NCBI GenBank assembly: GCA_039815185.1
Contig: JBCBZT010000026.1
Span: 1 to 64,000, forward strand
Direction of reading: 5' to 3'
From: Cyanobacteria bacterium P01_A01_bin.123
GTDB lineage: Bacteria > Cyanobacteriota > Cyanobacteriia > Phormidesmidales > Phormidesmidaceae
Length of the DNA: 64,000 bases
In this document: positions 47,791-64,000 of the stretch, piece by piece
Numbering within the stretch: the first letter of the stretch is position 1
Layout of the letters: each line of letters opens with the position of its first letter
The notes under the pieces: generated by a model
What the model saw: only the letters and a program-made list of their open reading frames with translations
Databases searched by the model: none
What the model was told of the DNA's origin: nothing
Translations under genes and position numbers: made by a program

Positions 47791-49134
47791 CTACCCTTCA
47801 CCAGTGACTGAAAGGGCGTCTACCCAAACGCGTGGGCATATTCCACCAGGCGTGATCTCAGCTTCCGGTTCCATATAGATAATGGAATTCAGCACATCCT
47901 GGATGTCCCCAGCCACCGTGGCCGACTCAATGCTGGTTTTCTCACCTTGATGCAGCATCCAGCCGTCAAAAGGCAGCGAGAAAGACCCTTGCAGGGCATT
48001 CACGCCAGCGTGGAGCGCCTGCAACTCATCGATCCAAATCACATTTTCTGCCGACTCAAGGCTCAAGCTGTCGCTCACCGTCTTACCCGGCAATACATGG
48101 TAAAAGTTCGCCCCAACACTAACTTTGGCCCCAATGCTGGCATGGCCTGTGGGTTTAGCCTTGAGTCGTTTGGCTGTCCCTGCACTATGCAAGAAGTTTG
48201 CCAGAATCCCATCCGTAATCAGGGGCAGTCGCCGGGTTGGGGTGCCTTCGCCATCGAAGGTTTCAGCTGAAATATTCTCCGGGTGTAGCGCATCATCGTA
48301 AACCGTCAGCAGCGGTGAGGCAACTTGCGTCCCTAACGACTCAGGCGTAGACAAACTACGCTTATCTAAAATGCTCTGGGCATTAAACAGATTAGAAAAC
48401 GCGCTCAGCAAGCTGAGAAACGCCTCAGCAGAAAATACCACCGGGTACTTGCCAGACTGGATTTTTTCATAGTTGAGGTGGCTAATGATTTTATCCGCGG
48501 CTTCTTTGAGGCAACCTGCAGTATCCAGTTGTGACAGCCCACTTTGGATACGCATGGCTCCTGCTGCTCGAGGTTTGCGGCCCTCTTGTTCAGTTTTGCC
48601 ATACAGATAAATCGAGGCGTAGGTGCGGGCCTCCTGGCGCAGGGCACCATTACTATTGAGATAAAATCGCTCAATATCTCGTTGGGCTAAGCCGTTATAG
48701 GGCACACTCGCGATCGCGTCGTGAGCTTCCAACAGCGTTTTCTCCGCCGCCACCAGTTTTTCAATCAAGTTCGAGACAGGAGCCTGGGGTTGCGATTCCA
48801 CCTCAACATTAGCCGTGGGCGCAGTGGCTTCTGGGCTAAAGTCAGGGACATGCTCCTTAGCCCCAAAATCACTGGCTTCTTGGGCAGTTTTCAGCGCCAA
48901 CTCTAACCCGGTCGTATCTAAATCCGTCGTGGTGGTCACCCCCAAGCGATCGTCATTATTCCACACCCGCACAATCACGCTAGAGCGGTTGGAAGCTTTA
49001 ACTTGCTTGGGTTCCCCTCTATCTACCTGCACGCTGGTTTCGTCTACAGACGATCCGTAAATGTCGTATTTAGCAATTCCTAGCTTCTTCGCTGTGGTTT
49101 CGGCTTGAGCCGCAATATCTTGGATCTGCGTCAT
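47791..49134 (-). CDS. pmbA: TldE/PmbA-family protein
   Basis: FDGEGTPT, LQGSFSLPFDG and ATVAGD; no HExxH; directly downstream of tldD. Confidence 0.88.
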   Translation of the reverse strand: MTQIQDIAAQAETTAKKLGIAKYDIYGSSVDETSVQVDRGEPKQVKASNRSSVIVRVWNNDDRLGVTTTTDLDTTGLELALKTAQEASDFGAKEHVPDFSPEATAPTANVEVESQPQAPVSNLIEKLVAAEKTLLEAHDAIASVPYNGLAQRDIERFYLNSNGALRQEARTYASIYLYGKTEQEGRKPRAAGAMRIQSGLSQLDTAGCLKEAADKIISHLNYEKIQSGKYPVVFSAEAFLSLLSAFSNLFNAQSILDKRSLSTPESLGTQVASPLLTVYDDALHPENISAETFDGEGTPTRRLPLITDGILANFLHSAGTAKRLKAKPTGHASIGAKVSVGANFYHVLPGKTVSDSLSLESAENVIWIDELQALHAGVNALQGSFSLPFDGWMLHQGEKTSIESATVAGDIQDVLNSIIYMEPEAEITPGGICPRVWVDALSVTGEG

Positions 49135-49136
49135 GG

Positions 49137-50621
49137 TTATCGTCCTCCCACGGTAATCGCATCCACTTTTAGGTGGGGTTGACCCACGGTCACATAAATA
49201 CTGCCGCTAACCGAGCCACAAAAGCCCGGTGCCAGACCCAAATCATTGGAGCACATGGAAATCCGATCCATAATTTCGGTTGCTTCACCAATCAGCGTTG
49301 CGCCCTTCAAGGGCTTGGTCAGCTTACCATTCTCAATCAGATAGGCTTCACTCACCGCGAAATTGAATTGCCCCGTTGGCCCGACGCTACCGCCGCCCAT
49401 TTTCTTGCAGTAAATGCCTTTGTCAATGGAGGCGAACAAGTCATCAATACTGTGCTCACCCGGTGCGATATAGGTATTACGCATGCGAGATGCCGCAGCA
49501 TAGGTATAGCTTTGCCGTCGGCCACTGCCCGTGCGCGGGTGTCCAGTCCTCATAGAACCCGCTCGATCGGACAGGAAATTCTTCAACACGCCGTTTTCAA
49601 TCAGCAGGGTACGTTGGGCAGGCATCCCCTCATCGTCCATGTCAATGGTGCCAAACTCATCGTCGGTTAATCCCTCATCCCAGGCGGTAAGGTTTTCGTG
49701 GGCGATTTTTTCACCCTTTTTATCCATAAAAGGCGTTGTCCCCCGTTCGATTTGGGTGGTTTCGAGCAGGTGACCGCAAGCTTCATGGAAAATGACGCCG
49801 CCAAAGTGATTAGCCATCACAATTGGGTAGGTGCCCGACTCAACGTAGTCGGCATAAAGCATTTTGCCCGCCGCCTCAGAGACCTGATCGGCGGTGTCGT
49901 TATAGTCCCAAGTTCTCAGGAAGGCTGGATCGCTAGTATCGCCTACCCGCTGCCCAATGGAAGAGCGATGGCTACCATCGGCACACAACAAGTTGTAGCC
50001 AACCGATTGGGTGAGGCGAATGTCACGGGCGAAAGTGCCGTCACTAGAGGCCACCAGTACCTCTTGCCAATCACGGAAATAGGCTGCACGGCGCGACTGG
50101 ACGTGGCTAGCCTTTTGCTCCAGAGCAGCGTTGGCCGCCAGCAGCACGTCCCCCATCTCCTGCATTGAGCTGCACTGTGCTAGCCAGGGCTCTTTGTTAC
50201 GGGCGATCGCGTAGTCACGCAATAACTCCAAGTTGATTTCTGGCACGTGGGCATTGGGACTGGGTAGCGTCAACCCCATGATCGACAATCCCTTTTCCAA
50301 AGCAGCCTTCAACCCGTTAAAACTCAAGTCATTGGTGCTGACATAACAATCTGCTTTGCCCAAAAATACCCGTACCCCAGCCCCCGTAACTAATCGAGGC
50401 GAAATGCTGGTAATCGCATCATCCTCAGCCTGGGCACTGATATAGTTGTTGCGCTCTAAGAAAAACTCAATAAAATCTGCCCCAGCAGCTCGCCCTAGCC
50501 CCAACAGAGTCGAGAGGGGCTTTTCCCACGACTGATCAAAGCGATCGCGGGTGGCATGGTAGTGCAACGATGGGATCTCCTTAGACCGGAGAAATATAGG
50601 AGAGGGGGTAGCCAGAGTCAT
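49137..50621 (-). CDS. tldD: TldD-family metalloprotease
   Basis: [26 protein letters not shown] and GFCGSVSG...VGQPH. Confidence 0.92.
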
Positions 50622-50847
50622 GCAATCCTTATTCCTTAAGTGAATAGACGCAATTATTTCAGGTCTTCTCAGTCTAACAAACTGTTGAGAGATGAGAGAA
50701 ACCGCGTAGGGCATCCCGCTATAAAGCTCATTGAAAAAGCTCAACTAACCCGTCAAAAGAAGAATATCGTATCTTTACAGCCGAGCTTGATTGAGCACTC
50801 CATCTCACATCCCAGTTTTTTCAACACCCTACGTATTTTTTCTTAGA

Positions 50848-50965
50848 CTAGATAGAATCACTTAACTTTGTCTAATGGACAATCACCCTAAAAAGTGCTT
50901 TTTCTCGAGAAAAAAAATTTAGCCAGTGATCTCCTAAGAATTTATCCCTAGATAGAATTACTTAA
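50848..50965. promoter_or_regulatory. Pair of 18-bp direct repeats, candidate operator sites
   Basis: CTAGATAGAATCACTTAA (50848-50865) and CTAGATAGAATTACTTAA (50948-50965), exactly 100 bp apart, in the divergent tldD/NRPS intergenic region. Confidence 0.5.
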
Positions 50966-51394
50966 GCTTAGCCAGAAAGCACCTCTAAATTGGCTCAAAA
51001 AAATATATTCATAATGATTGAGGAACTCTCAGAGCTTTTCTATTTCAAATACATGCCACTTCACTTCAGTCAATAGAGAAAAGCTCGAAAAAGCGTTCAA
51101 TTTGAGTTTTAGAGAATCCGTCATATGGCTTAGTCAATCCCCGAATCCGCTGGGAATGATCAGATTGGAGCACCTTTGGTATAGGTTCAATCTCATTCTG
51201 GATTTTTCATAAATTTTTGATCTAATTAAATTTTGGCGATTTTCAAAGATCAGAAATATGAGTCTATATAAACGTGAGACCATGCTTTAACCCTGGGCAT
51301 CAACTTTAGTTCTTACAGGATGTCGAGAAGTTTATGCTCTTCAAAATCATCAGGCTGTGGTTTGTTTCTAATTAGGTTGTTGGACAATGGGGAA

Positions 51395-54300
51395 ATGGAT
51401 TCATTTAAGCATAATAATCAGTTTGAAGGCGTACATGTCTGGTTTGAACAGCAAGTTGATAAGGCTCCAGACGCGATCGCTATTGTGTCTGGCATGCAGC
51501 AATATAGCTATCGAGAACTTAATCACCAGGCGAATCAATTAGCAAGATATCTAAAAAAGTTAGATGTTAAGCCAGAAACACTGATCGGCATCTGCGTAGA
51601 GCGATCGCCAATTATGATAGTTGCGCTATTAGCCGTGCTAAAAGCTGGTGGTGCATACGTCCCTATTGACCCGACGTACCCTAGAGAAAGAGTCACTCTG
51701 ATGCTGGAAGACTCACAGGTACCAATCGTTCTAACCCAGCAACAACATATCTCCAATCTGCCTACCCCCAAAGCCACCATTGTTTGTCTAGATACAGACT
51801 GGCCGGTCATTGCTGAAGAAAAAACAGCCAATTTAGACACAGCAATTACTAGCGACAATTTGGCCTACATCATCTATACCTCCGGCTCTACAGGTAAACC
51901 GAAAGGGGTAATGATCGAGCACCACGCTTTGGCAAATTTCGTTCAGGCGATTGGTCGGAACTACGAGATCATCGCAACTGATCGGGTCTTGCAATTTGCG
52001 TCTGTCAGCTTTGATGTAGCAGTTGAAGAAATCTTTGTCACCTTAGCCAAAGGGGCGACCCTGATCCTACGCTCTCAAGACATGCTGCGGTCTATTCCAG
52101 CATTTCTGGAAACCTGTAAAGCATGGGACTTAACAGTTCTGAATTTACCCACTGCCTTCTGGCACAAAATTTGTGCTGAATTACCCCAGACCGAAATTCC
52201 AACCTGTGTAAGGCTAGTCGTCATTGGTAGCGAACGTGCCATACCCCGTTGGCTGACGATCTGGCAGCAGCATGCCCCAAATCATGTTCGTCTCATCAAT
52301 GCCTATGGTCCAACTGAGGCTACCGTAGGGTCAACTTTATGTGATTTAGCTGGCCCCCATGCGGTAGACACAACCGATAAACGGATACTACCTATTGGTA
52401 AACCGATTGACCACGTACAAATTTACGTCCTGAATCCAGACCTCCAGCCTGTTGGGGTTGGCGTCACTGGTGAGTTATACATTGCTGGGGCAGGGCTAGC
52501 TCGTGGGTACTTAAATCGCCCTGATCTGACTGCCGTTCGCTTTATCTATATGCAATGTGGAGAGGGGCAAATTCGTCTCTATAGGACGGGTGATTTAGTT
52601 CGTTATCGCGAAGACGGTCACCTCGAATTCCTTGGCCGAAGCGATCATCAGGAAAAAATTCGCGGCTTTCGCATTGAGTTAAATGAAATCGAAACCATCC
52701 TGGAACAACATTCAAACGTACAGCAGGCGCTGGTTCTGGCGCGGGAAGATGTTCCAGGGGATAAGCGGCTGGTAGCCTATATCGTACTGGCCTCATCCGT
52801 ATCCACTGGCAACCTGCTTGATAAACCAAAGCATCGTTTGGTACCCCATCTCCGCTCTTATCTGCGCGGCAAACTACCCAGTTACATGGTGCCTTCATCA
52901 TTCGTGTTACTGAATAGTCTGCCTCTCAGTCCAAATGGCAAGGTTGATCGGCGAGCCCTACCGGCACCTACTGCAGCACGTCCTGCCCTAGATGAAATCT
53001 ATGTTGCCCCTTGCACACCACTAGAGCAAACATTGGCTCAACTTTGGTCAGCAGTATTAGGCATCGCTGAAATTGGGGTGAACGACAACTTTTTTGAGCT
53101 AGGGGGTGACTCGCTGCAAACAACCCAGCTCATTTCTCAGATTGAAAAGAACCATCAGGTCGTTATCCCGCTTCTTGACTTTTTCAAAATACCAACCATT
53201 AGGGGACTGGCCATCCTCATTCAGGAAGTTCGGACAGATCAGCAAGTATCTACTGAACATATGACTCTGCCGCAACTGCAAGCACAGGTTGTGCTAGAGG
53301 CATCTATTCAACCGCAATACCTTGCGGAAACAGCAGCCGAGCCCAAAGCCATTTTTCTAACAGGTAGTACTGGATTCGTCGGAGCATTTCTCCTACATGA
53401 ACTCCTGCAGCAAACCCAGGCCAAGGTTTATTGCCTGGTGCGGGCTCGACATTTCTCCGAAGTCCATCAAAAAATCTGCACCACCCTAGAACGCTACTTT
53501 AATCAAGTCGAGACCTACTATTCACGTATTATTCCAGTTATTGGCGACCTAGCTCAGCCCCGATTAGGACTAACAGAGCGACGGTTTCAAGCGTTAGCTG
53601 ACTCGATTGATGTCATCTATCACTGTGGTGCGAATGTCAATTTGCTTTATCCTTACACAGCCTTGCACAGTACCAATGTAATCGGCACCCATGAGATTTT
53701 GAGGCTGGCAAGTTACGGTCAACCCAAACGTCTCCACTATCTCTCCACCCTGGATGTCTTTGAGTCAGTGGCGAAAACAGGGGTAAAAGTTTTCCATGAG
53801 AATGACAGCATTGATCGCGGTCAGGGCATCTCTAGCGGCTATGCTCAGAGCAAATGGATTGCCGAGCAGCTCGTGAAGCGAGCTGCCGAACGAGGTTTAT
53901 CAGTCTGCATTTATCGACCGGGAATGGTAACAGGGCATAGTCAGAGCGGTCACTCGAACACCGCCGACGTGCTCTGTCGTTTTGTGAAGAGTATGATCCA
54001 ACTCCGGCAAGCTCCAGATTTAGATCTGATGCTAGATATGACCCCAGTGGATTATGTGAGCCGGGCAATTGTGCAGCTTTCGTTACAGTCTGAACTATCA
54101 GGACAAACCTTTCATCTGGTTAACCCTAACCCTCTAGCCTTATCCCAGCTCGTAAATGTGCTATGTACCAGAGGCTTCCCGATTCAGCGGGCTCCCTACT
54201 TGCAGTGGCAGGCCAAGCTCAAACTAGAACCCAATGCCCTCAGTCCGTTGGCTGCGCTCTTAACACAAGCAAACGAAGACGATCAGCGCACTGGCCTAGA

Positions 54301-54484
54301 AATGTGGCTTGGCGGCAGCGATCAGTTTGACTGCACCAACACACACCAAGGCTTACAAAACTCTATTACCTGTCCTTCTGCCAACCCAAAGCTAGTAGAC
54401 ACCTATCTCAACTATTTCATCCAGAGTGGCTTTATCCAGGCTACATCTGCTTACTCCGTCTCTACTTCCTTACCCAGTGAATGA
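51395..54484 (+). CDS. Stand-alone NRPS-like enzyme: adenylation - PCP - thioester reductase (A-T-R)
   Basis: A domain: YIIYTSGSTGKPKG, NAYGPTE, GELYIAG, YRTGD, NGKVDR. PCP: FFELGGDSL. R domain: FLTGSTGFVG, GYAQSKW. No condensation domain. Confidence 0.95.
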   Translation: MDSFKHNNQFEGVHVWFEQQVDKAPDAIAIVSGMQQYSYRELNHQANQLARYLKKLDVKPETLIGICVERSPIMIVALLAVLKAGGAYVPIDPTYPRERVTLMLEDSQVPIVLTQQQHISNLPTPKATIVCLDTDWPVIAEEKTANLDTAITSDNLAYIIYTSGSTGKPKGVMIEHHALANFVQAIGRNYEIIATDRVLQFASVSFDVAVEEIFVTLAKGATLILRSQDMLRSIPAFLETCKAWDLTVLNLPTAFWHKICAELPQTEIPTCVRLVVIGSERAIPRWLTIWQQHAPNHVRLINAYGPTEATVGSTLCDLAGPHAVDTTDKRILPIGKPIDHVQIYVLNPDLQPVGVGVTGELYIAGAGLARGYLNRPDLTAVRFIYMQCGEGQIRLYRTGDLVRYREDGHLEFLGRSDHQEKIRGFRIELNEIETILEQHSNVQQALVLAREDVPGDKRLVAYIVLASSVSTGNLLDKPKHRLVPHLRSYLRGKLPSYMVPSSFVLLNSLPLSPNGKVDRRALPAPTAARPALDEIYVAPCTPLEQTLAQLWSAVLGIAEIGVNDNFFELGGDSLQTTQLISQIEKNHQVVIPLLDFFKIPTIRGLAILIQEVRTDQQVSTEHMTLPQLQAQVVLEASIQPQYLAETAAEPKAIFLTGSTGFVGAFLLHELLQQTQAKVYCLVRARHFSEVHQKICTTLERYFNQVETYYSRIIPVIGDLAQPRLGLTERRFQALADSIDVIYHCGANVNLLYPYTALHSTNVIGTHEILRLASYGQPKRLHYLSTLDVFESVAKTGVKVFHENDSIDRGQGISSGYAQSKWIAEQLVKRAAERGLSVCIYRPGMVTGHSQSGHSNTADVLCRFVKSMIQLRQAPDLDLMLDMTPVDYVSRAIVQLSLQSELSGQTFHLVNPNPLALSQLVNVLCTRGFPIQRAPYLQWQAKLKLEPNALSPLAALLTQANEDDQRTGLEMWLGGSDQFDCTNTHQGLQNSITCPSANPKLVDTYLNYFIQSGFIQATSAYSVSTSLPSE

Positions 54485-55881
54485 CAATGAAAACCATGCT
54501 GTCAGGATCAAAGGTTCTTGCAGAAATTAAGTCTTGCACCATGCTGTCTATTCCCCTAGCAGCCGCCCAAGTTACCGACTCTATCACTGGTTTTGTCGAC
54601 ACCATGATGATGGGTTGGCTAGGAAGCCAATCGCTGGCTGCTGGGGCACTAGGCGCGATCTCGTTTAACTATTTATTGTGGATTACCACATCTATTGTCT
54701 CTGCTGTGAGCCCGCTGACAGCGCAAGCCTATGGCAAGGGAAATCCCCAAACCGTAAGGCAGATTTTACAGCAAGGGTTATGGTTAGCAAGCATCTTGGG
54801 TGCTCCCATAACTTTGCTACTTTGGCATGGCGGCACAATCCTGCATTATCTAGGACAAGACCCCAATACGATTGTCTTTACGGAACAATATCTGAAGGCG
54901 ATCGCTTGGGGATTTATCCCTGCCATCGGCTTCTCAGTTTTAAAGGGGTTTGTCTCTGCGCTCTCCCACCCACGGGTCGTCATGCTGATGGTGATTTTGG
55001 GCGTTTTGCTTAACATCTGTGGCAATTATGTGCTGATGTTCGGCAAGTTTGGCCTACCAGCTCTAGGGTTAGCTGGTATTGGCTGGGCCAGCACCTTATC
55101 ACTGTGGAGCACATTTCTCCTAATGCTGTTATATGTTTCTTGCCGCAAGTACTTTGCCGTCTTCAAACTTTGGTCTAAGCTACAGTTCAACCATCGCATA
55201 TTGAGTGAACTATTGCGGGTTGGCTTGCCAATTGGTGGGTTAATGTTAGTCGAAGCTGGTATCAGTGCAGTGGGTACCTTTTTGGCCGGACAATTAGGCA
55301 CTACGTCTCTAGCAGCTCACCAAATTGCCTACCAAACAGCTGGCATTATTACCTATCAGGTTGCCAGTGGCATTTCTATCGCTACCACCATACGCGTAGG
55401 CCAGTTCGTAGGTCAAAATAAGGTTCAAGCGAGCCGTTTAGCCGGATTTGTCGGCATTGGCCTAGCTGGAGCCTGCATGGGGGTATTTAGTCTAGCGTTT
55501 GTGCTAATTCCCAATCAAATTGTGGGGCTATATCTGGATGTGTCTCAGCCTGATACGGCCGATGTTGCAGCCCTTGCTAAAACCCTGCTAATCATTGCTG
55601 CACTGTTTCAAATGATTGATGGGGCTCAAGTCACCGCTGCTGGGGCACTGCGAGGTCTAAAGGATACCCAAGTACCAATGCTCATTGGAATCATGGCTCA
55701 TTGGGTCATTGGCCTACCTGTTAGTTATGTGTTGGGTATGCAGTTGGGTTTCGGTGTAGTCGGGCTTTGGTTAGGCGTTGCCACAGGACTAAGCATTGCT
55801 GCCATTGTCCTCATCTGGCGTTTTAAGACAGAATCTTGGCGAGCTATTCGTCATAGTAATCATGTCTTACGAAACTGTTAG
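54481..55881 (+). CDS. MATE-family efflux transporter
   Basis: VDTMMMGWLG, FGLPALGLAGIGWA, LAAHQIA and GALRGLKDT; the start overlaps or abuts the NRPS stop. Confidence 0.94.
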   Translation: MTMKTMLSGSKVLAEIKSCTMLSIPLAAAQVTDSITGFVDTMMMGWLGSQSLAAGALGAISFNYLLWITTSIVSAVSPLTAQAYGKGNPQTVRQILQQGLWLASILGAPITLLLWHGGTILHYLGQDPNTIVFTEQYLKAIAWGFIPAIGFSVLKGFVSALSHPRVVMLMVILGVLLNICGNYVLMFGKFGLPALGLAGIGWASTLSLWSTFLLMLLYVSCRKYFAVFKLWSKLQFNHRILSELLRVGLPIGGLMLVEAGISAVGTFLAGQLGTTSLAAHQIAYQTAGIITYQVASGISIATTIRVGQFVGQNKVQASRLAGFVGIGLAGACMGVFSLAFVLIPNQIVGLYLDVSQPDTADVAALAKTLLIIAALFQMIDGAQVTAAGALRGLKDTQVPMLIGIMAHWVIGLPVSYVLGMQLGFGVVGLWLGVATGLSIAAIVLIWRFKTESWRAIRHSNHVLRNC

Positions 55882-56125
55882 CAACCTAAGACCAAACCAA
55901 TACATCCAAGCCTGATAAATAATTATCGAGTTGGGCACTCTAAGAGCGGGAACAGTTCCTAATTATCAAATATCAATTCATCTTTTTTATAAAAGAGAAT
56001 TAGAGGCATTCAGATTCGAGGAATACTACTTAACTCAAAACCAAAAATATCTGCTGATTACCTGAAAGAACTTTAACATTTCTTCACTGTCTACGCCATC
56101 TCTCAGAAACTGATAGGTTTGCAAA

Positions 56126-59062
56126 ATGAGACTGCCATTCAATCGATTAAGACGTACAGATCAATATCAACGTAAAATCCCCCTGCGACTGATCTTGGTG
56201 GTACCGTTTGTTGTAGAAATATCTGCTGCAGTAGGCTTAACAGGTTATCTCTCACTGCAAAATGGCCAACGAGCCGTCAACGAATTGGCGGGCCGACTTA
56301 GATATGAAGTCAGTAATCGAATTGATCAGGAGTTAGATCAGTATCTAACCATAGCTCAGCGGGTTACCCAGAATAATGGTGCCGCTTTCGATTTAGGCTT
56401 ATTAAACCCAGAGAACTTAGAGCAACTAGGTCACTATTTCTGGCAGCAAATGCAGATTTATCCCGTTGGCTACATTCTCTATGGAACCACATCTGGAGAT
56501 ATGGCGGCTGCAGGAGACTATTTCGAAAACGGGCAGATCGCAATTCACGAATCTTCACCTCGCTTACACCAGAATTCTAGTCTGTATACCTACCTCACTG
56601 ATGAGCAAGGGAATCGAACTGAACTAGGCGAAGTATTGCCTGATCATTCTTTCTATCAAGAAGGGTGGTATGCCGAAACCATTCGCTTAGGTCGTCCTAG
56701 TTGGACTCCGATTTATCAGTGGGAAACAGCGCCTTACACCTTATCTGTGGCGATCGCCCGTCCCGTTTATGATCCATCAGGAGAAATTATTGGCAGTATC
56801 GCTACAGAGCAGCCTCTGTCTGAAATCGGTGATTTTTTGAAAAACCTAAACGTCAGTCCCTCGGGCAAAACATTTATCCTGGAGCGTGATGGTTCACTGG
56901 TTGCAAGTTCCAGTGAGGAAGAACCTTACACATTAGTTGATGGCAAACCAGAGCGATTACAAGCAACAGATAGCTCTGATCCATTTATTCAATCTACGGC
57001 CGATTACCTGATAGCAAGGTTTGGAGATCTGAATAATATTACTGTTTCACAACAGATTGATTTTTGGATTGAAGATCAGCACCAGTTTGTTCAAGTTACG
57101 CCTTGGCAAGATGAGCTTGGATTAGATTGGCTCATGGTGGTAGTAGTCCCAGAGTCCGATTTCATGGAACAGATCGAGGCTAATACTCGCACAACAATCA
57201 TCCTTTGTCTAATGGCCCTGGTCGTTGCACTTGTATTGGGATATTTTACGTCTCGCTGGATTGCTGAACCTATTCTCCAGATTAGCCATGCCTCAGAGGC
57301 GATCGCCAATGGAGATCTTGATCAAACAGTAGAAGCCTCAAACGTGAACGAGCTTAATGTACTTTCTCATGCATTCAACCGCATGGCTCAGCAACTGAAG
57401 GAATCTTTCACAGCCTTGGCCAAGACTAATGAAGAACTAGAACTCCGTGTAAAGCAACGTACCCTTGAACTACAAGAGGCAAAGGAGTCCGCCGAGGTTG
57501 CTAATACTGCCAAGAGCGAGTTTTTAGCCAATATGAGCCATGAATTGCGAACCCCAATGAACGCCATCATTGGCTATAGCGAAATGTTACAAGAAGAAGC
57601 TGAAGAGATGAATGAAGACATCTTTAGCCAAGATTTAAATAAAATTCACGGTGCAGGCAAACATCTCCTAAATCTAATTAATGACATACTAGATTTATCA
57701 AAAATTGAAGCTGGTCACATGGAACTTTTCTTAGAAAACTTTCAGATCAGAGACCTAATTAATGAAATAGAAGCAACTATTTCACCACTCATTGAGAAGA
57801 ATAAAAACCAACTAATCATCCATTGCCCTGAAGGGATCGGTAGCATAAAGGCCGACCTCACAAAAGTTCGTCAGTCACTACTTAATCTGCTAAGTAATGC
57901 CTCTAAATTCACTCAACAAGGGACAATAGCCCTGACCGTGAGTCGTTACAGTTTTAATGAACAGCCTTGGCTGAGCTTTAAGGTGAGCGATAGTGGCATT
58001 GGGATGACATCAGAACAGATGAAAAAGTTATTCCAAGCATTTAGTCAAGCCGACGCTTCAACCACTCGAAAATATGGTGGTACAGGTCTAGGTTTAGCGA
58101 TTACTAAGAAATTTTGTGAAATGATGGGAGGAACCATCGAAGTAGAAAGTCAGATCAACAAAGGCAGTACCTTTAGTATAAATTTACCAGCAGAAGTTGG
58201 TACAAAATTATCTGACAGCGAGGTGAACAAATTAACTGCTCCTGAAAGCCTTAGTCCTCGAAAATCAACGGTTTTGGTTATTGATGACGATCCTGCAGCC
58301 CAGGATATTCTCCAGCGTTTTCTCAATAAGCAAGGATTTGATGTTATCGCAGCAAGCAACGGTAAAGAAGGACTAAGATTAGCCGAAGAGAAACAGCCAG
58401 ATGCCATTACTTTAGATGTGATGATGCCAGAGATGGATGGCTGGGAAGTTTTGAGCAAGTTAAAAGCTAATCAGACAGTCGCCCATATCCCAGTCATTAT
58501 GATGACTATGGTAGACAACAAGAATTTAGGATATGCCTTAGGCGCAGCTGATTACCTTCTTAAACCCGTCGATCGCCAACAATTAGCATCAGTCCTCCAA
58601 AAGTACCAGATCAAAAAATCTCCATCTATTCTACTCGTCGTAGAAGATGACTCGATTACTCGTGAAATGCTAAAGCGACAACTAGACATAGAAAATGTCA
58701 AAGTTATTGAGGCTTCCGATGGAAGACAAGCGCTCAGCCTCATGCAATCGACAAAGCCAGGCGTCATTATTCTTGATTTAATGATGCAAAATATGGATGG
58801 TTTCGAGCTCATTTGCCAGCTTCAAAATCAACCTGATTGGCAGTCAGTTCCGGTAGTGGTTATTACAGCTAAAGAACTCACAAGAGCAGAAAGAGAATAC
58901 CTCAACAGTCGGGTTCAGCAAATCTTCCAAAAAGGTGCTTATGATCGCAACACCTTACTTAATGAGGTAACCAGTCTGCTTTCTAAGGCATTAGACCAAG
59001 GAAAACCTGATAATCAAGAATCTACTCTAGATGAACCCAATAATGTCTTGATTGAGAAGTAA
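56126..59062 (+). CDS. Membrane hybrid histidine kinase: TM-Cache-TM-HAMP-HisKA-HATPase-REC-REC
   Basis: Two TM segments flank a periplasmic domain with WY...WTPIY Cache-like motifs; [24 protein letters not shown]; two REC domains ([16 protein letters not shown]). Confidence 0.93.
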
Positions 59063-59151
59063 AGGATAGAATTTTCAGACACCGCTGAGACAAAGAGTCA
59101 GAAGTAAGAAATATTAGTTTTGATCAACTTAGAAATTTAAGGAGAGAAACC

Positions 59152-59529
59152 ATGACCAAAATACTCTTGGTTGAAGACAACGAAATGAATCAAGATATGC
59201 TGTCGAGGCGATTAGTTCGCAAAGGCTATGACATCATTATTGCTTCAGATGGGGCCGAAGGATTAGCCAAGTCAAAATCAGACAATCCCGATCTAATTCT
59301 CATGGATATGAGCTTACCTGTGATCGATGGTTGGGAAGCAACTCGACAGCTAAAGGCAGACCCGAAGACCCATACCATTCCAGTGATAGCGCTAACGGCC
59401 CATGCTATGTCAGGCGATCGAGAAAAAGCATTGGCAGCCGGTTGCGATGATTATGACACAAAGCCAATTGAGCTCGCACGACTAATCAACAAAATCAAGA
59501 ATTTGCTGCAGCAAGGACAGCTTGTATAA
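59152..59529 (+). CDS. Single-domain response regulator (CheY/DivK-like)
   Basis: ILLVEDN, LILMDMSLP, ALTAHAM and TKP; AAGGAG ribosome-binding site. Confidence 0.95.
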   Translation: MTKILLVEDNEMNQDMLSRRLVRKGYDIIIASDGAEGLAKSKSDNPDLILMDMSLPVIDGWEATRQLKADPKTHTIPVIALTAHAMSGDREKALAAGCDDYDTKPIELARLINKIKNLLQQGQLV

Positions 59530-59555
59530 GGGTGTTGGCACACCCTTATACAAGC
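59520..59555 (+). terminator. Perfect 16-bp-stem hairpin overlapping the response regulator stop codon
   Basis: GCTTGTATAAGGGTGT-TGGC-ACACCCTTATACAAGC. Confidence 0.6.
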
Positions 59556-59653
59556 CTTATCTCAGAAACTTGAACCTAACCTAAGTCAATCTAGATCCTT
59601 GAGAGTGCCCTATATAAGGGTTGGCGATCAATTTTTATCAAAAATCACTGGCT

Positions 59654-61441
59654 ATGATTGCTAATTTTGAGATTACAACTTCCCTCCTAGCATTCTGGCG
59701 TCATGAACTGTATGCGCCTCTCAATACTATTCAAGGATATAGTGGCCTAATTATTGATGAATTGGAAGATCAATATGGCTCTCAGAGGGATAATAACGTC
59801 ATTGAAATCTTGTCTAGCATCTTAAAATTCAGCAAAGAGATTCAGGAAATCATTGGCAACACACTTGATTCTAAAATCTTAGATGATAGAGAATGTGTTC
59901 GCAATATCATCGATTTAAGATATCTGTTAGAACAAAAGCTAATCAACAAGATTGACCAAATCAACCTGGACGTGCAAAGGATATTAACAGAGTATTCTAT
60001 AGGATTTGATTCAGATCTAGACAAGATTATAAAGTCTACTCATAACTTGAAGAGCTTATTGAGCGGCAATTTGCTTTGGTTGAAGGATTTCTCACCAACT
60101 GTTGAGCCCTCTCAACCTGAAAATAATTTTGTTGGCTTGAAAAAGAGCACAGATCAAAACAAATCAACGCTTAGTGATATAGAGCAATCTCTGAGGATTA
60201 TCAGGCATACCCACTATGATAGACAATACAACCCTCAAGACTTTAAAATTTTAGTTGTTGACAATAATAGAAGTAATCAAGAGCTACTCTATCGTCAACT
60301 TGAGCGGGAAGCCTACCATGTCGATACAGTAGAATCTGGGGAAGAAGCAATCCAAGTAATTCAGGATAAAAACTATGACTTAATCCTTCTAGATATCATA
60401 ATGCCGGGGTTGAATGGCTACCAAGTGCTGCATTATTTAAAGTGTAGCCAGTGGAAAAATATACCTGTCATTATGATCTCTTCCCTGAATGAGATAGATA
60501 GTATTACAAAATGCATCGAAATGGGTGCAGAAGATTACCTACCTAAACCTTTCAACTTTACTCTGCTAAGGGCTAGGATAGACGCTTGCTTAGAGAAGAA
60601 AGACTTACAAGATCAAGAAAAGATCTTTATTAATCAGCTGGCTTCTGCAAATAAAGAAATCGAAGCACTTAATGACAAGCTAAAAGCTGAGAATATTAGA
60701 CTGTCAACTGAGCTAGAGATTACTCGCCGACTACAGCAACTAATCTTACCAAAAGATTCTGAGCTTAGAGAGATTGAAGATATTGATATCGCTGGATTCA
60801 TGGAGCCTGCTGAAGAGGTCGGAGGAGACTACTATGATGTCCATGAATATAACGGAAGCGTTAATATCAGCATTGGAGATATTACAGGTCACGGTCTTGA
60901 AAGTGGACTGTTGATGATCATGGTTCAAACAGCTATTCGAACATTAATTGAAAATAACGAAACAGATCAGAAAAAGTTATTAAATACACTCAACCAAATT
61001 ATTATCAATAACGCCAAAAGAATTGAATCAGAGCGAAATTTAACACTTTTACTGATCAACTATGTTAAAGGAACCTTGAGCATTGCAGGTCAACATGAAG
61101 ACATTGTTATCGTTCGTGCCAGCGGCCAGATAGAACGTATCGATACTACCTATTTAGGGTTCCCAATTGGACTAGAAGAAGATATCAAGAGTTTTATCCA
61201 CGAAACTCAATTGAGTCTATCTTCGGGAGACGTCATGATTCTTTATACCGATGGAATCACAGAAGCAGAGAGTGAATGTGGAAACCAGTATGGCATGGAA
61301 CGTCTTTGTGACACAGTCCGAAAGAATCGTATGCACCCAGCTAAAACAATCAAAAAAATGGTGATTGATGATTTAAGAGCACACATCGGAGAAAATAAAA
61401 TTTTAGATGATTTAACCCTGCTTGTTCTGAAGCAGAAATAA
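59654..61441 (+). CDS. SpoIIE/PP2C phosphatase with N-terminal HisKA-like (DHp) and receiver domains
   Basis: RHELYAPLNTIQGYS; REC (LILLDIIMPG); PP2C motifs VGGDYYD, IGDITGHG, LYTDGITEA and DDLTL. Confidence 0.9.
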   Translation: MIANFEITTSLLAFWRHELYAPLNTIQGYSGLIIDELEDQYGSQRDNNVIEILSSILKFSKEIQEIIGNTLDSKILDDRECVRNIIDLRYLLEQKLINKIDQINLDVQRILTEYSIGFDSDLDKIIKSTHNLKSLLSGNLLWLKDFSPTVEPSQPENNFVGLKKSTDQNKSTLSDIEQSLRIIRHTHYDRQYNPQDFKILVVDNNRSNQELLYRQLEREAYHVDTVESGEEAIQVIQDKNYDLILLDIIMPGLNGYQVLHYLKCSQWKNIPVIMISSLNEIDSITKCIEMGAEDYLPKPFNFTLLRARIDACLEKKDLQDQEKIFINQLASANKEIEALNDKLKAENIRLSTELEITRRLQQLILPKDSELREIEDIDIAGFMEPAEEVGGDYYDVHEYNGSVNISIGDITGHGLESGLLMIMVQTAIRTLIENNETDQKKLLNTLNQIIINNAKRIESERNLTLLLINYVKGTLSIAGQHEDIVIVRASGQIERIDTTYLGFPIGLEEDIKSFIHETQLSLSSGDVMILYTDGITEAESECGNQYGMERLCDTVRKNRMHPAKTIKKMVIDDLRAHIGENKILDDLTLLVLKQK

Positions 61442-61477
61442 AAGCAGATAGTTTTTTGACGTCCATCATATTTAAAT

Positions 61478-62047
61478 ATGACTTTAATTTTAGGAGATTT
61501 TATTGAGTACCTCCCGTCCAAAAGGGATTCTGCAACAATCAACTTTACATTTAGCTACAACTCAGCCAATCATCAGTATTTAAATAATCACTTATCATTT
61601 GGCATTATCGCCATCCATATGCTTAAGTCTATTGGAATTCAGTTTTCAAATAATGCCACAGGCAAAGAAAATGAGATCAGAAATTCTGTTGACTATATTG
61701 CTAATGAACTGTTAGAAAACTCAATCAAGTATGGCGAACATTCTTTCCATGAAATCAATATCGAAATTCACGTCTTTGAATGTAGAGTTGTTATTATATC
61801 GACAAATTTAGTTAATGAGCTTAGAGAAAAATTGTTTCAAACATATATTCAGAAAATAATTACTTCAGATGTCTCAGAATTATACTTCAAGCAGTTAGAA
61901 GAGAATATTGACAACAACCAAAAATCTGGGCTTGGTTTATTAACGATTATAAATGATTATAAAGCTAAAGTTGGGTGGAAATTTGAATCTTCCGACCATG
62001 GATACGGGACTTTAAGTTCTGTAATGGTTCAGCTCCCAGCATCTTAG
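61478..62047 (+). CDS. Slr1658-like (SiaB / anti-sigma-type GHKL Ser/Thr kinase-like) regulator
   Basis: YIANELLENSIKY (N box) and SGLGLLTIINDY.AK.GWKF (G box-like). Confidence 0.78.
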   Translation: MTLILGDFIEYLPSKRDSATINFTFSYNSANHQYLNNHLSFGIIAIHMLKSIGIQFSNNATGKENEIRNSVDYIANELLENSIKYGEHSFHEINIEIHVFECRVVIISTNLVNELREKLFQTYIQKIITSDVSELYFKQLEENIDNNQKSGLGLLTIINDYKAKVGWKFESSDHGYGTLSSVMVQLPAS

Positions 62048-62099
62048 ACACATAAACACTTGAATTAACCCTAGTACAAAAGGATAAGCTGTCAAATTC

Positions 62100-62447
62100 A
62101 TGAATAATAAACTCGCAAAGTACTCGATCCATTATGACAGCGAATCTGAAACTATTAGCTTTAGCGGCAAGCTACGCTTTACCCAAACAGATCCTGAGTT
62201 TGCTGAGATCTCAGAATTGTTAAAAACAGTCCTTGAAAAGGATCCGCCACAGATTACACTCAACTTGGAAGAGTTAGAATTTTTGAACAGTCTAGGTATC
62301 AGCATGATTTCGAAGTTCATCATAAAGATTAGAAATAAAAAGAGTATTCACGCAATTGTTAAAGCTTCTCATGAAATTTCTTGGCAGGGTAAGTCTTTAG
62401 TGAATTTACAACGAATTATGCCCAGCCTCGAATTTACATGGGTATAA
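62100..62447 (+). CDS. Slr1659-like STAS / anti-anti-sigma-type protein
   Basis: ITLNLEELEFLNSLGISMISKF (STAS-like motif, first Ser retained) and WQGKSLVNLQR. Confidence 0.78.
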   Translation: MNNKLAKYSIHYDSESETISFSGKLRFTQTDPEFAEISELLKTVLEKDPPQITLNLEELEFLNSLGISMISKFIIKIRNKKSIHAIVKASHEISWQGKSLVNLQRIMPSLEFTWV

Positions 62448-62556
62448 ATAGAAAAGAATACTTTCATTCTTTGGAGAGTTCTACTTCTTCTATTGGGGAG
62501 CTTTTTCTCTCAAGATATAAAAATCCCACAAAAATGTAGATAAGCCGAAGAGAGAT

Positions 62557-64000
62557 ATGAGTGAGATTGACGTTATGGAGAAGACCAATAAGAATCAAAA
62601 GCTTCAACAAATCTGGCTTCCTAGAAATCAAAATGAAAGCTCTTTTGTGGATGATCTTACAGGCTTACCAAATCGCAATTTGCTTTTACAAAAACTTCAA
62701 GACAATATAGCCTTTTGCAAAGAACATTCAAATAAGACGCTTGCACTTCTGGTCTTAGACATCGATCACTTCAAGGTTGTTAACAATAGCTTGGGTATTG
62801 CAGTAGGCGATCAGCTACTTATAAAAGTTGCTGAAAGACTTCAAGACATTATGCGATTTGATGATTATGTTGTACGTCTTGGCGGAGACGAGTTTGCAGT
62901 TGTACTGAATAACATAAAAGATATTGATAACATCCATAAAATCGCATCCAGAATTCATGACGGATTAATGCTCCCGTTTTGTCTAAATGACAATGAAGTA
63001 TTTATTAACACAAGTATGGGAATTACCCATAGCCATGTGAGTTTCGGGAAAGCAGAAGACTTTTTCCGAGATGCTGATACGGCCATGAATTACGCAAAAT
63101 CTTTGGGGCGCTCATGCCGCGTAATTTTCCAGCCAGAGATGCATAAGAGCGTTGTTCAACGCCTCAATTTAGGAAACTCATTGAGGCAGGCACTCAGCCG
63201 AAAAGAATTCTTCTTAGAGTATCAGCCTATCGTCTCTCTGGATGAAGAGATCTTGGTAGGATTTGAAGCGCTTATTCGTTGGAAGCACCCACAGCAAGGT
63301 ACTATTCCACCATCAGACTTTATTCATCTAGCTGAGGAAATAGGTCTCATTGAACCTATTGGCCAGTGGGCACTTGAAGAGGCCTGCCAACAGACAAAAG
63401 CTTGGCAGGTGCAGTTTGAAGGTATGCAAGATCTAACAATCAGTGTAAATTTGTCCGCCAAACAAATTTTCGACAATAATTTCTTTACGCAAGTAAAAAC
63501 AGCCTTAGCAAAATCTGAACTTGAGCCATGCTGTCTAAAGCTAGAAGTCACCGAAAACATTCTGCTGGAAGACAAGAAAAAAGTAGCGGCTGTGCTAGAT
63601 AATGTTAGATCTCTAGGTGTCCAAATTTCAATTGATGATTTTGGCACAGGCTATTCTTCTCTCAGTTATTTAATGCACTTCCCTTTTGACGTATTAAAGC
63701 TGGACACTTCTTTTACAGAAGGCATTGACAATAACTATAAAAAATTCAACCTTGTCAAAGGTATTCTCACTTTAAGTCAAGGCCTAGACGTTGAAGTTGT
63801 TGCTGAAGGTTTAGAAACTCAAGATCAGCTTTTACAGTTTAAGGCTTTGAAATGCAGATATGGACAGGGATATATTTTTTCAAAACCTTTGAGTAAGCAG
63901 AAGGTTGAAAGTTTTATTTTATCAAATCTCATCGGCCTCAAAAATTCAAGCCTCGAAAGAGAAACTTGCCTGTTTCACGAGCAATTAGATATCTCACAAA
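62557..64000 (+). CDS. GGDEF-EAL c-di-GMP cyclase/phosphodiesterase with no obvious sensor domain; 3' end runs off the window
   Basis: Read by hand from the ATG at 62557: DDLTGLPNR, DIDHFKVVN, RFDD...RLGGDEF (62881), GFEALIRW, IDDFGTGYSS, VAEGLE and GQGYIFSKPL. Confidence 0.92.
   Translation, partial: MSEIDVMEKTNKNQKLQQIWLPRNQNESSFVDDLTGLPNRNLLLQKLQDNIAFCKEHSNKTLALLVLDIDHFKVVNNSLGIAVGDQLLIKVAERLQDIMRFDDYVVRLGGDEFAVVLNNIKDIDNIHKIASRIHDGLMLPFCLNDNEVFINTSMGITHSHVSFGKAEDFFRDADTAMNYAKSLGRSCRVIFQPEMHKSVVQRLNLGNSLRQALSRKEFFLEYQPIVSLDEEILVGFEALIRWKHPQQGTIPPSDFIHLAEEIGLIEPIGQWALEEACQQTKAWQVQFEGMQDLTISVNLSAKQIFDNNFFTQVKTALAKSELEPCCLKLEVTENILLEDKKKVAAVLDNVRSLGVQISIDDFGTGYSSLSYLMHFPFDVLKLDTSFTEGIDNNYKKFNLVKGILTLSQGLDVEVVAEGLETQDQLLQFKALKCRYGQGYIFSKPLSKQKVESFILSNLIGLKNSSLERETCLFHEQLDISQ

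Follow-up and report, generated by a model that had tools for sequence, protein, structure and literature searches.

A candidate synthase-receptor gene pair with exchangeable outputs in cyanobacteria

Eight genes in a row

We studied a stretch of 64,000 nucleotides from Cyanobacteria bacterium P01_A01_bin.123 (positions 1 to 64,000 of contig JBCBZT010000026.1, assembly GCA_039815185.1), which we call the window. Near its end are eight open reading frames (ORFs) in the same orientation. The first encodes a stand-alone enzyme that resembles the nonribosomal peptide synthetases (NRPSs) and consists of adenylation, thiolation, and reductase domains (A-T-R). The third encodes a transmembrane (TM) hybrid kinase with a Cache sensor domain. 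Our subject is the pairing of such enzymes with such kinases, both here and in other cyanobacteria. Except where other evidence is given, the assignments below are from Pfam/NCBIfam.

51395..54484, + strand: stand-alone A-T-R NRPS-like enzyme, 1029 aa (ATG at 51395; longest ORF from 51320)
54481..55881, + strand: predicted MATE exporter (NorM-like; PF01554)
56126..59062, + strand: hybrid kinase, TM-dCache-TM-HAMP-HisKA-HATPase-REC-REC
59152..59529, + strand: single-domain response regulator
59621..61441, + strand: DHp(His)-REC-PP2C phosphatase (HisKA, REC, and SpoIIE matches weak)
61478..62047, + strand: Slr1658-superfamily (DUF6272) anti-sigma-type kinase (NF047703 over cut-off)
62100..62447, + strand: Slr1659-superfamily STAS-like switch protein (NF047705 over cut-off)
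62557..64000, + strand, continuing past the window to C104:64722: GGDEF-EAL-coiled coil-GGDEF enzyme, 721 aa

The first-pass annotation of this DNA had given these eight co-oriented genes in this order, and the ORF list and the family matches bear it out. It was also right that the MATE gene overlaps the stop codon of the NRPS gene: the ATG of the one and the TGA of the other share the letters ATGA at 54481-54484. The hybrid kinase has the TM-Cache-HAMP architecture as described, with two receiver domains. One description needs amending: the last gene does have GGDEF and EAL domains but is longer than was thought and adds the coiled coil and a second GGDEF domain. All of the catalytic and phospho-acceptor motifs that we looked for are intact across the cluster. 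The closest homologue of the NRPS aligns from residue 1 of the product that starts at the ATG at 51395.

Flanking the cluster are tldD and a housekeeping gene that we take to be upp. GC content is 0.48 in the NRPS and MATE genes, 0.45 in the Cache-HAMP part of the kinase gene, 0.41 in the kinase core, and 0.33-0.39 in the downstream output genes, as compared to 0.50 for the genome. Because a 16.5-kb contig from a different study covers positions 49036-64000 in one piece (~97% identity, 469 differing letters), a chimeric assembly is unlikely. Those sequencing runs that hold the stretch and have a named source are marine and coral metagenomes, and none of the listed runs is an RNA run. The named relatives are filamentous cyanobacteria. 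A scan for promoters and terminators gave no excess over shuffled sequences (28 vs 27.5; 8 vs 11.1), and in the one same-genus genome used for an empty-site comparison, the contig stops ~530 bases upstream of tldD.

The NRPS-like enzyme has AMP-binding, PP-binding, and NAD_binding_4 domains and no condensation (C) domain, so it is a stand-alone A-T-R enzyme, and the motifs GGDSL, TGSTGFVG, and YAQSKW are present. The genome has three matches to the ACPS/phosphopantetheinyl transferase family. The closest solved A core is that of ApnA A1 (4d4g), whose specificity we take to be Arg/Tyr. The ten-residue code of the A domain is DVENVGAVGK, and 8 of 10 positions are shared with AerM (DVENVGAITK), which belongs to the aeruginosin pathway of Nodularia spumigena CCY9414, activates arginine, and releases argininal (PMC3765200, Table 2). 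Because of this similarity, arginine is the best prediction for the substrate. AerM terminates a multi-module peptide assembly line (PMC3765200), while the enzyme studied here has neither a C domain nor partner modules. A precedent for the architecture is ATRed of Xenorhabdus indica, an A-T-R enzyme whose amino acid is released as an aldehyde and dimerizes (PMC7586950). By analogy to these two enzymes we infer reductive release of an amino aldehyde or alcohol (PMC7586950, PMC3765200). The product is probably argininal or a derivative; going by ATRed (PMC7586950), we predict the aldehyde, the corresponding alcohol, or a dimer in the form of a pyrazine. The guanipiperazine pathway likewise has NRPS-like enzymes (GupB-type) of this architecture, which release an amino acid as a dimerizing aldehyde (PMC8179380). 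Both ATRed and GupB use aromatic substrates, and the portions of those papers that we draw on do not address the function of the ATRed product or mention a sensor (PMC7586950, PMC8179380).

Pairing of A-T-R enzymes with Cache kinases

Our comparative searches were of cyanobacterial genomes and metagenomes. We searched with the NRPS against 61 relatives, 173 family genomes, and 401 class genomes (overlapping sets), and we mapped neighborhoods of up to 20 kb around stand-alone matches of ~1000-1150 aa and around hand-picked longer modules. The linkage counts leave out the window's own locus, the duplicates L048/L049, and the truncated loci L034/L061.

If the enzyme and the kinase work together, as the first-pass annotation proposed, then they should be neighbors in other cyanobacteria, and they often are. 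Of 58 loci with a related stand-alone A-T-R enzyme that lacks a C domain, 41 have a Cache kinase at most two genes away, versus 3 of 27 C-containing or longer terminal (cluster-type) modules. Among enzymes that also have a methyltransferase domain (A-MT-T-R), 6 of 7 have a Cache kinase within two genes (four of these were found via the Cache search). By way of background, 1.3% of random 3.1-kb stretches of this genome have a Cache-like domain within 3.2 kb. The pairs span at least 9 family labels and occur in four arrangements: co-oriented with the kinase downstream, co-oriented with the kinase upstream, divergent, and convergent. Two genomes with an A-T-R enzyme but no neighboring kinase (G023 and G008) encode Cache relatives elsewhere at 56-59% identity; the relatives at paired loci are at 70-73%.

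Searching from the sensors shows how far the pairing extends. All four non-self matches to the Cache domain of this locus at 65% identity or above (173 genomes) are beside an NRPS with a DVENVGAVG-type code. So are four of the five metagenome matches at 64-67%, and the fifth has no upstream DNA. Among relatives from genomes at 41-50%, the NRPS is present at 7 of 20 fetched loci. With an Ala-type Cache domain as the query, all nine non-self matches at 55% or above are paired, including two that were not on the NRPS search lists, while only 3 of 20 weaker matches have an R domain within 1.5 kb. For a Pro-type query, the matches at 51% or above are paired in 6 of 6 cases and the weaker ones in 4 of 24. 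Thus, the paired sensors are tight subgroups within larger Cache families that mostly lack an NRPS. An initial metagenome scan with the NRPS query gave no match, and a plasmid search gave only Cache relatives of 40% or weaker.

Some of the Cache kinases without an NRPS are worth recording. Nostoc punctiforme PCC 73102 has a hybrid kinase (P0054 / P0121, ACC83786.1) whose Cache domain is 54% identical. A decarboxylase that depends on pyridoxal phosphate (L134:6687-8300) lies directly before an NRPS-less Cache kinase of the same family and is possibly another source of amines. And a ~290-aa protein without a Pfam match is upstream of NRPS-less Cache kinases at L177:5080-5976 and L250:4465-5322 (29% mutual identity). 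It is accompanied at L177 by a small membrane protein (discussed below) and the whole output block, and at L250 by a 73% homologue of a SET-domain protein that also accompanies some of the A-T-R genes. The ~290-aa protein may be a synthase of another kind.

The type of sensor shifts with the type of enzyme. The code classes in this family are Arg-like, Lys-like, Ala, Gly, Cys, and Pro, where the labels other than Arg follow what we take to be the published code tables, and distinct Cache groups pair with Arg-, Lys-, Ala/Gly/Cys-, and Pro-type enzymes. We compared similarities across 33 pairs, leaving out 7 sensors for which two TM helices were not predicted, L054, L060, and three kinases of non-Cache type. 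In the comparison of A and Cache domains that the first-pass annotation had proposed, the Cache domain co-varies with the A domain (Spearman 0.77), and it does not co-vary with its own kinase core (0.06). The partial correlation of A and Cache given R is 0.62, while that of R and Cache given A is 0.075. In a set of 48 pairs (leaving out L054, L055, and L092), the correlation between Cache and A core given the flanks, R, and the kinase core is 0.45. When nearest neighbors are picked by Cache, they share the broad class in 45 of 46 cases, as compared to 42 by R and 33 by kinase core. We regard L045, L079, and L070 as the clearest natural experiments. L045 and L079 have Pro-code enzymes within an Ala-type R clade, yet their sensors have Pro-family Cache domains (36-37% vs 16-19% identity), and at L070, a Gly-code enzyme on another R clade is paired with an Ala-family Cache domain (62%).

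Several loci have unusual enzymes or additional genes. At L119, L124, L125, L127, L131, and L133, an A-MT-T-R enzyme with a Lys-like code is accompanied by a Cache kinase and by a methyltransferase of the NNMT/PNMT family; at L132, the Cache kinase and a gene of methyltransferase size are present, with no NRPS in view. The reductase-ending NRPSs at L128:7419-11660, L129, and L187:2323-8991 have a PilZ domain inside the A domain (confirmed by Pfam for L128 and L187) and are beside Ala-family Cache kinases. The L187 enzyme is also fused to PAS-GGDEF-EAL, which would place the synthase under the control of cyclic di-GMP (c-di-GMP). In two distant genomes, the NRPS and kinase genes are separated by a reversed gene for a ~300-aa protein of no known family whose start resembles a signal peptide (L070:11713-12597 and L084:7565-8497; 45% identical). 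Finally, the A-T-R enzyme at L101:6842-11017 is joined to an alanine racemase in one protein, and the kinase that follows it is a multi-pass membrane protein that lacks a Cache domain.

Outputs and exporters

The kinase itself links two parts with different affinities. Its sensor matches dCache_1 with E 8e-11 and 42.4 bits, just below the cut-off of 45, and is 65-72% identical to the Cache domains of loci with the same code (tree support 0.99). The kinase cores at those loci are only 43-44% identical to this one and lead to a REC-kinase. The core of this kinase is instead 78-80% identical to the cores at Pro-type loci (tree support 0.945), whose Cache domains are at 16-18%. Judging from these identities, the kinase is a mosaic, in which the Cache domain goes with the NRPS and the core goes with the downstream block. 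The single response regulator is 70-83% identical wherever this core occurs, and the two are found together with four types of pair: Arg-type (here), Lys-type (L031, from the cultured filamentous cyanobacterium CCP5, which shares the architecture of this locus), Pro-type (L083, L085/L092, L086, and L089), and Ala-type (L077 and L084).

Downstream of the response regulator, the PP2C phosphatase, a kinase, a STAS-like protein with an acceptor residue, and a cyclase are all in one cluster. The Slr1658-superfamily kinase is present in a single copy in the genome and matches DUF6272, which we presume to be linked to SiaB, at 29.4 bits (cut-off 26.6). The Slr1659-like protein has an invariant N63-S64, a predicted phosphosite, and aligns weakly to SpoIIAA (E 0.33). 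The phosphatase is predicted to dephosphorylate this protein. Searches of PDB sequences with the Slr1658- and Slr1659-like proteins gave nothing significant and no SiaB or SiaC chain up to E 10. The c-di-GMP enzyme has intact motifs at its two GGDEF sites, at its two RxxD sites, and in its EAL domain, and its coiled-coil stalk is conserved. SiaABCD of Pseudomonas aeruginosa shares the PP2C phosphatase, the kinase, the STAS-like switch, and a cyclase with a coiled-coil stalk (PMC8457831). Unlike in SiaABCD, the phosphatase of this locus is cytoplasmic and receiver-controlled, the switch is of the slr1659 superfamily and has no SiaC match in the PDB search, and the cyclase has an added GGDEF-EAL.

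The first-pass annotation had treated the eight genes as one circuit, and this does not generally carry over to other genomes. Among the 41 paired loci, slr1658 is found in 6, slr1659 in 5, a GGDEF gene in 12, and MATE in 2. Conversely, the partner-switch block occurs without any NRPS at 3 of 5 non-self PP2C matches (401 genomes). We therefore rejected the eight-gene cluster as a conserved unit. What is conserved is the NRPS and the Cache sensor domain; the kinase core and all that lies downstream of it act as an output that can be exchanged. The idea of a synthase-receptor circuit survives in its core, the linkage and co-variation of NRPS and Cache, but not with the MATE exporter and the partner-switch block as fixed parts. 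A related arrangement is seen at L178 and L179, where the kinase over the same output block has a HAMP domain, genes for two solute-binding proteins of the NMT1 type lie upstream (by Pfam for L178), and NRPS and Cache domain are absent.

As to export, we rejected MATE as the exporter of the family. In the two paired loci that have it, it does not adjoin the NRPS: it is three genes away and is 36% identical. An orthologue at 73% is found only beside an A-MT-T-R enzyme with an Arg-type code (L033). In close relatives, the slot of MATE is filled by an unrelated ~200-aa protein with seven TM helices. This small membrane protein is present in 10 of the 41 paired loci, all of them basic-type, and has a predicted PQ-loop/SWEET-like fold, which is a lead only. 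Either exporter candidate occurs only at basic-type loci among the 41. In three genomes (L035:13140-15200, L047, and L050), the ORF of the small membrane protein runs in frame into a Mutator-family transposase. Another recurring neighbor is a short-chain dehydrogenase/reductase, near 8 of the 41 paired loci (five of the eight are Pro-type); a second reduction step, giving an amino alcohol, would be in keeping with this.

What the pair may do

We think it probable, if far from certain, that the enzyme and the kinase are a synthase and a receptor for its product, in a modular cassette. At this locus, the A domain would load L-arginine, as predicted from its code, and the R domain would release it, as is established for A-T-R enzymes, as argininal, which may be converted to argininol or a pyrazine dimer. 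The cationic product may leave via MATE. The neighboring dCache domain would then bind the product, not the free amino acid, and set the activity of the kinase, as the co-evolution of the two suggests. By domain logic and by analogy to SiaABCD, phosphate would pass through the receiver domains and the DHp histidine to the REC-PP2C phosphatase. How far the Slr1659 STAS protein is phosphorylated would depend on the phosphatase together with the Slr1658 kinase, and the STAS protein would in turn control the c-di-GMP enzyme, probably via the coiled coil. Aggregation or motility may be affected in consequence, as the first-pass annotation suggested. Synthase and candidate receptor are genetically linked and co-vary, as expected for quorum sensing.

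A number of observations weigh against this view. No Cache kinase is within two genes at 17 of the 58 A-T-R loci; 4 of these are at contig edges, and among the others are two subgroups in their entirety, one with DAES-type codes and one of Pro-type. The Fisher p value of 3e-7 for linkage and the p values for co-variation are overstated because the genomes are related. Within the 23 basic-type pairs, Cache correlates better with R (0.81) than with the A core (0.71), for which the partial correlation drops to 0.05; the Cache domain follows the whole NRPS and not the code, which is indistinguishable from joint inheritance. There are also exceptions to the correspondence of code and Cache: at L128/L129, a Lys-type code goes with an Ala-family Cache (41%), and at L117/L123, the enzymes are of dipeptide type and the Cache is of the basic family. 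The five metagenome matches at 64% or above are all from one sample series. Many Cache relatives have no NRPS: at 50-57% an NRPS is in view in 0 of 10 metagenome loci, and over 100 proteins belong to that tier without a mapped context. The eight-gene cluster contains no DNA-binding regulator and no histidine phosphotransferase (Hpt) gene, so autoinduction would have no visible route. And quorum sensing in the strict sense, with extracellular accumulation, receptor binding, a response to density, and autoinduction, would go further than our proposal, in which the binding and the product chemistry are predictions.

It seems unlikely to us, but is worth taking seriously, that the kinase senses the substrate of the NRPS (arginine or a related nutrient) or some other outside cue and regulates the enzyme, in which case the product would be a metabolite and not the ligand. 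A substrate sensor would likewise co-vary with the code of the A domain, and one Cache group is common to Gly, Ala, and Cys enzymes, as a sensor of small amino acids might show. When modeled with AlphaFold (mean pLDDT 91), the Cache domain has as its top Foldseek matches the dCache domains of MkcA, PctD, TlpA, McpX, and TlpQ (13-15% identity for PctD, McpX, and TlpQ), and its fold neighbors include the amino-acid receptors Mlp24 (with arginine), PctA, and Tlp3. The pocket argues otherwise. The dCache_1AA motif consists, in PctA numbering, of Y121, R126, and W128, which contact the carboxyl group, and Y144 and D173, which contact the amino group (PMC8915833). By a weak alignment to 3c8c (E 3e-4), our Cache domain keeps W and Y and, with E in place of D173, the part that contacts the amino group, but it also has E in place of R126, so it lacks the complete amino-acid sensor motif. 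The carboxylate-binding Arg is missing from all three Cache families that we aligned, and in PctA, R126A reduces affinity 61-fold (PMC8915833). The loss of R126 along with the retention of aromatic and acidic residues agrees with dCache_1AM, in a comparison that covers these residues (10.1101/2023.04.06.535858). Such a pocket would fit an amine without a carboxylate (PMC8915833; 10.1101/2023.04.06.535858). On the other hand, by consensus the Arg is missing from the whole cyanobacterial Cache subfamily, unpaired members included, so this argues against free arginine as the ligand without singling out the NRPS product, and to that extent it tempers our proposal as well. Also at odds with substrate sensing, the outputs are REC-kinases, GGDEF/EAL proteins, and partner switches, and no DNA-binding regulator is annotated beside the pairs (annotation is limited).

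We find it rather improbable that the product, a reactive amino aldehyde, is a defense or stress metabolite, with the receptor giving local feedback within a cell or filament instead of a signal of population density. Argininal is indeed found at the C-terminus of the aeruginosins, which inhibit proteases (PMC3765200). The removal of a reactive cation would suit a MATE pump, and local feedback would fit a cluster with no positive-feedback transcription factor. But the specificity of aeruginosins comes from their peptide part, which free argininal does not have, and several dialects with their own receptor groups and freely exchanged outputs are expected of private signals. A little less likely still, to our minds, is a mobile cassette without a functional link, in which recombination inside the kinase gene leaves the Cache domain attached to the adjoining NRPS. 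In its favor, the island is low in GC and patchy, the Cache end of the kinase is nearest the NRPS in most loci, the basic-clade Cache follows the whole NRPS, and transposases interrupt some loci. Against it, the linkage holds in all four gene arrangements (tail-to-tail included), it is seen in more than one clade of R domains and involves three Cache families that are unrelated to one another, Cache tracks the A domain better than the intervening R domain, and close Cache relatives almost never occur without an NRPS.

Returning to the product-sensing pair, there appear to be several dialects of it in cyanobacteria: Arg-, Lys-, N-methyl-Lys-, Ala/Gly/Cys-, and Pro-type. A bolder idea, which we offer tentatively and do not insist on, is that reduced amino acids from A-T-R enzymes are widespread and undescribed cell-to-cell signals of cyanobacteria, read by matched dCache kinases, with rewiring, output swapping, and eavesdropping. 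The signals would be amino aldehydes, amino alcohols, or pyrazines of these same amino acids. Pairs would have arisen, or been rewired, on several occasions and from three Cache families without mutual relation; synthase and sensor would move as a unit, and recombination inside the kinase gene would yield dialects like those of LuxI/LuxR or the agr types. Unpaired Cache relatives may eavesdrop, and this locus would be an arginine dialect wired to a partner switch and c-di-GMP.

One-module NRPSs reportedly make the extracellular signals of the Ham/valdiazen and Mgo/leudiazen clusters. The same is true of Pvf in Pseudomonas entomophila (pvfA-D; PMC10194917). The pvf genes encode a di-iron N-oxygenase (PMC10194917), while this locus has none and has a candidate receptor adjoining. 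Neither among the eight genes nor among the scanned neighbors is there a di-iron N-oxygenase or accessory gene of the Pvf/Ham/Mgo type. In the cassettes cqsA-cqsS, lqsA-lqsR-lqsS, rpfF-rpfC-rpfG, and phcB-phcS-phcR, a synthase is beside a membrane hybrid kinase, and rpf ends in c-di-GMP turnover; the synthase chemistry and the sensor domains are different. We know of no such cassette that pairs an A-T-R enzyme with a dCache kinase, and in the literature, where our coverage of subscription journals is thin, we found no account of a cyanobacterial system of this kind. So both ingredients have precedents, the cassettes just listed for the linkage and, for A-T-R signal synthases, Pvf (PMC10194917). 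To these, this locus adds an arginine dialect, evidence that there are several matched dialects, and an output swap inside a kinase gene.

Whether cyanobacteria have dedicated autoinducer-receptor systems is, to our knowledge, an open question, and as far as we know, most Cache domains have no known ligand. The pairs offer both halves at once, in that the code of the A domain predicts the molecule and the neighboring gene names the receptor. If our proposal is correct, then this locus would be a natural case of a signal input swapped onto a c-di-GMP switch. It would also give the first receptor class that we know of for signals made by A-T-R enzymes; for Pvf, the receptor and the transduction pathway are described as future work (PMC10194917). 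More broadly, recurring pairs of enzyme and sensor, in which the type of sensor shifts with the amino acid, may be a family of chemical signals with their own receptors.

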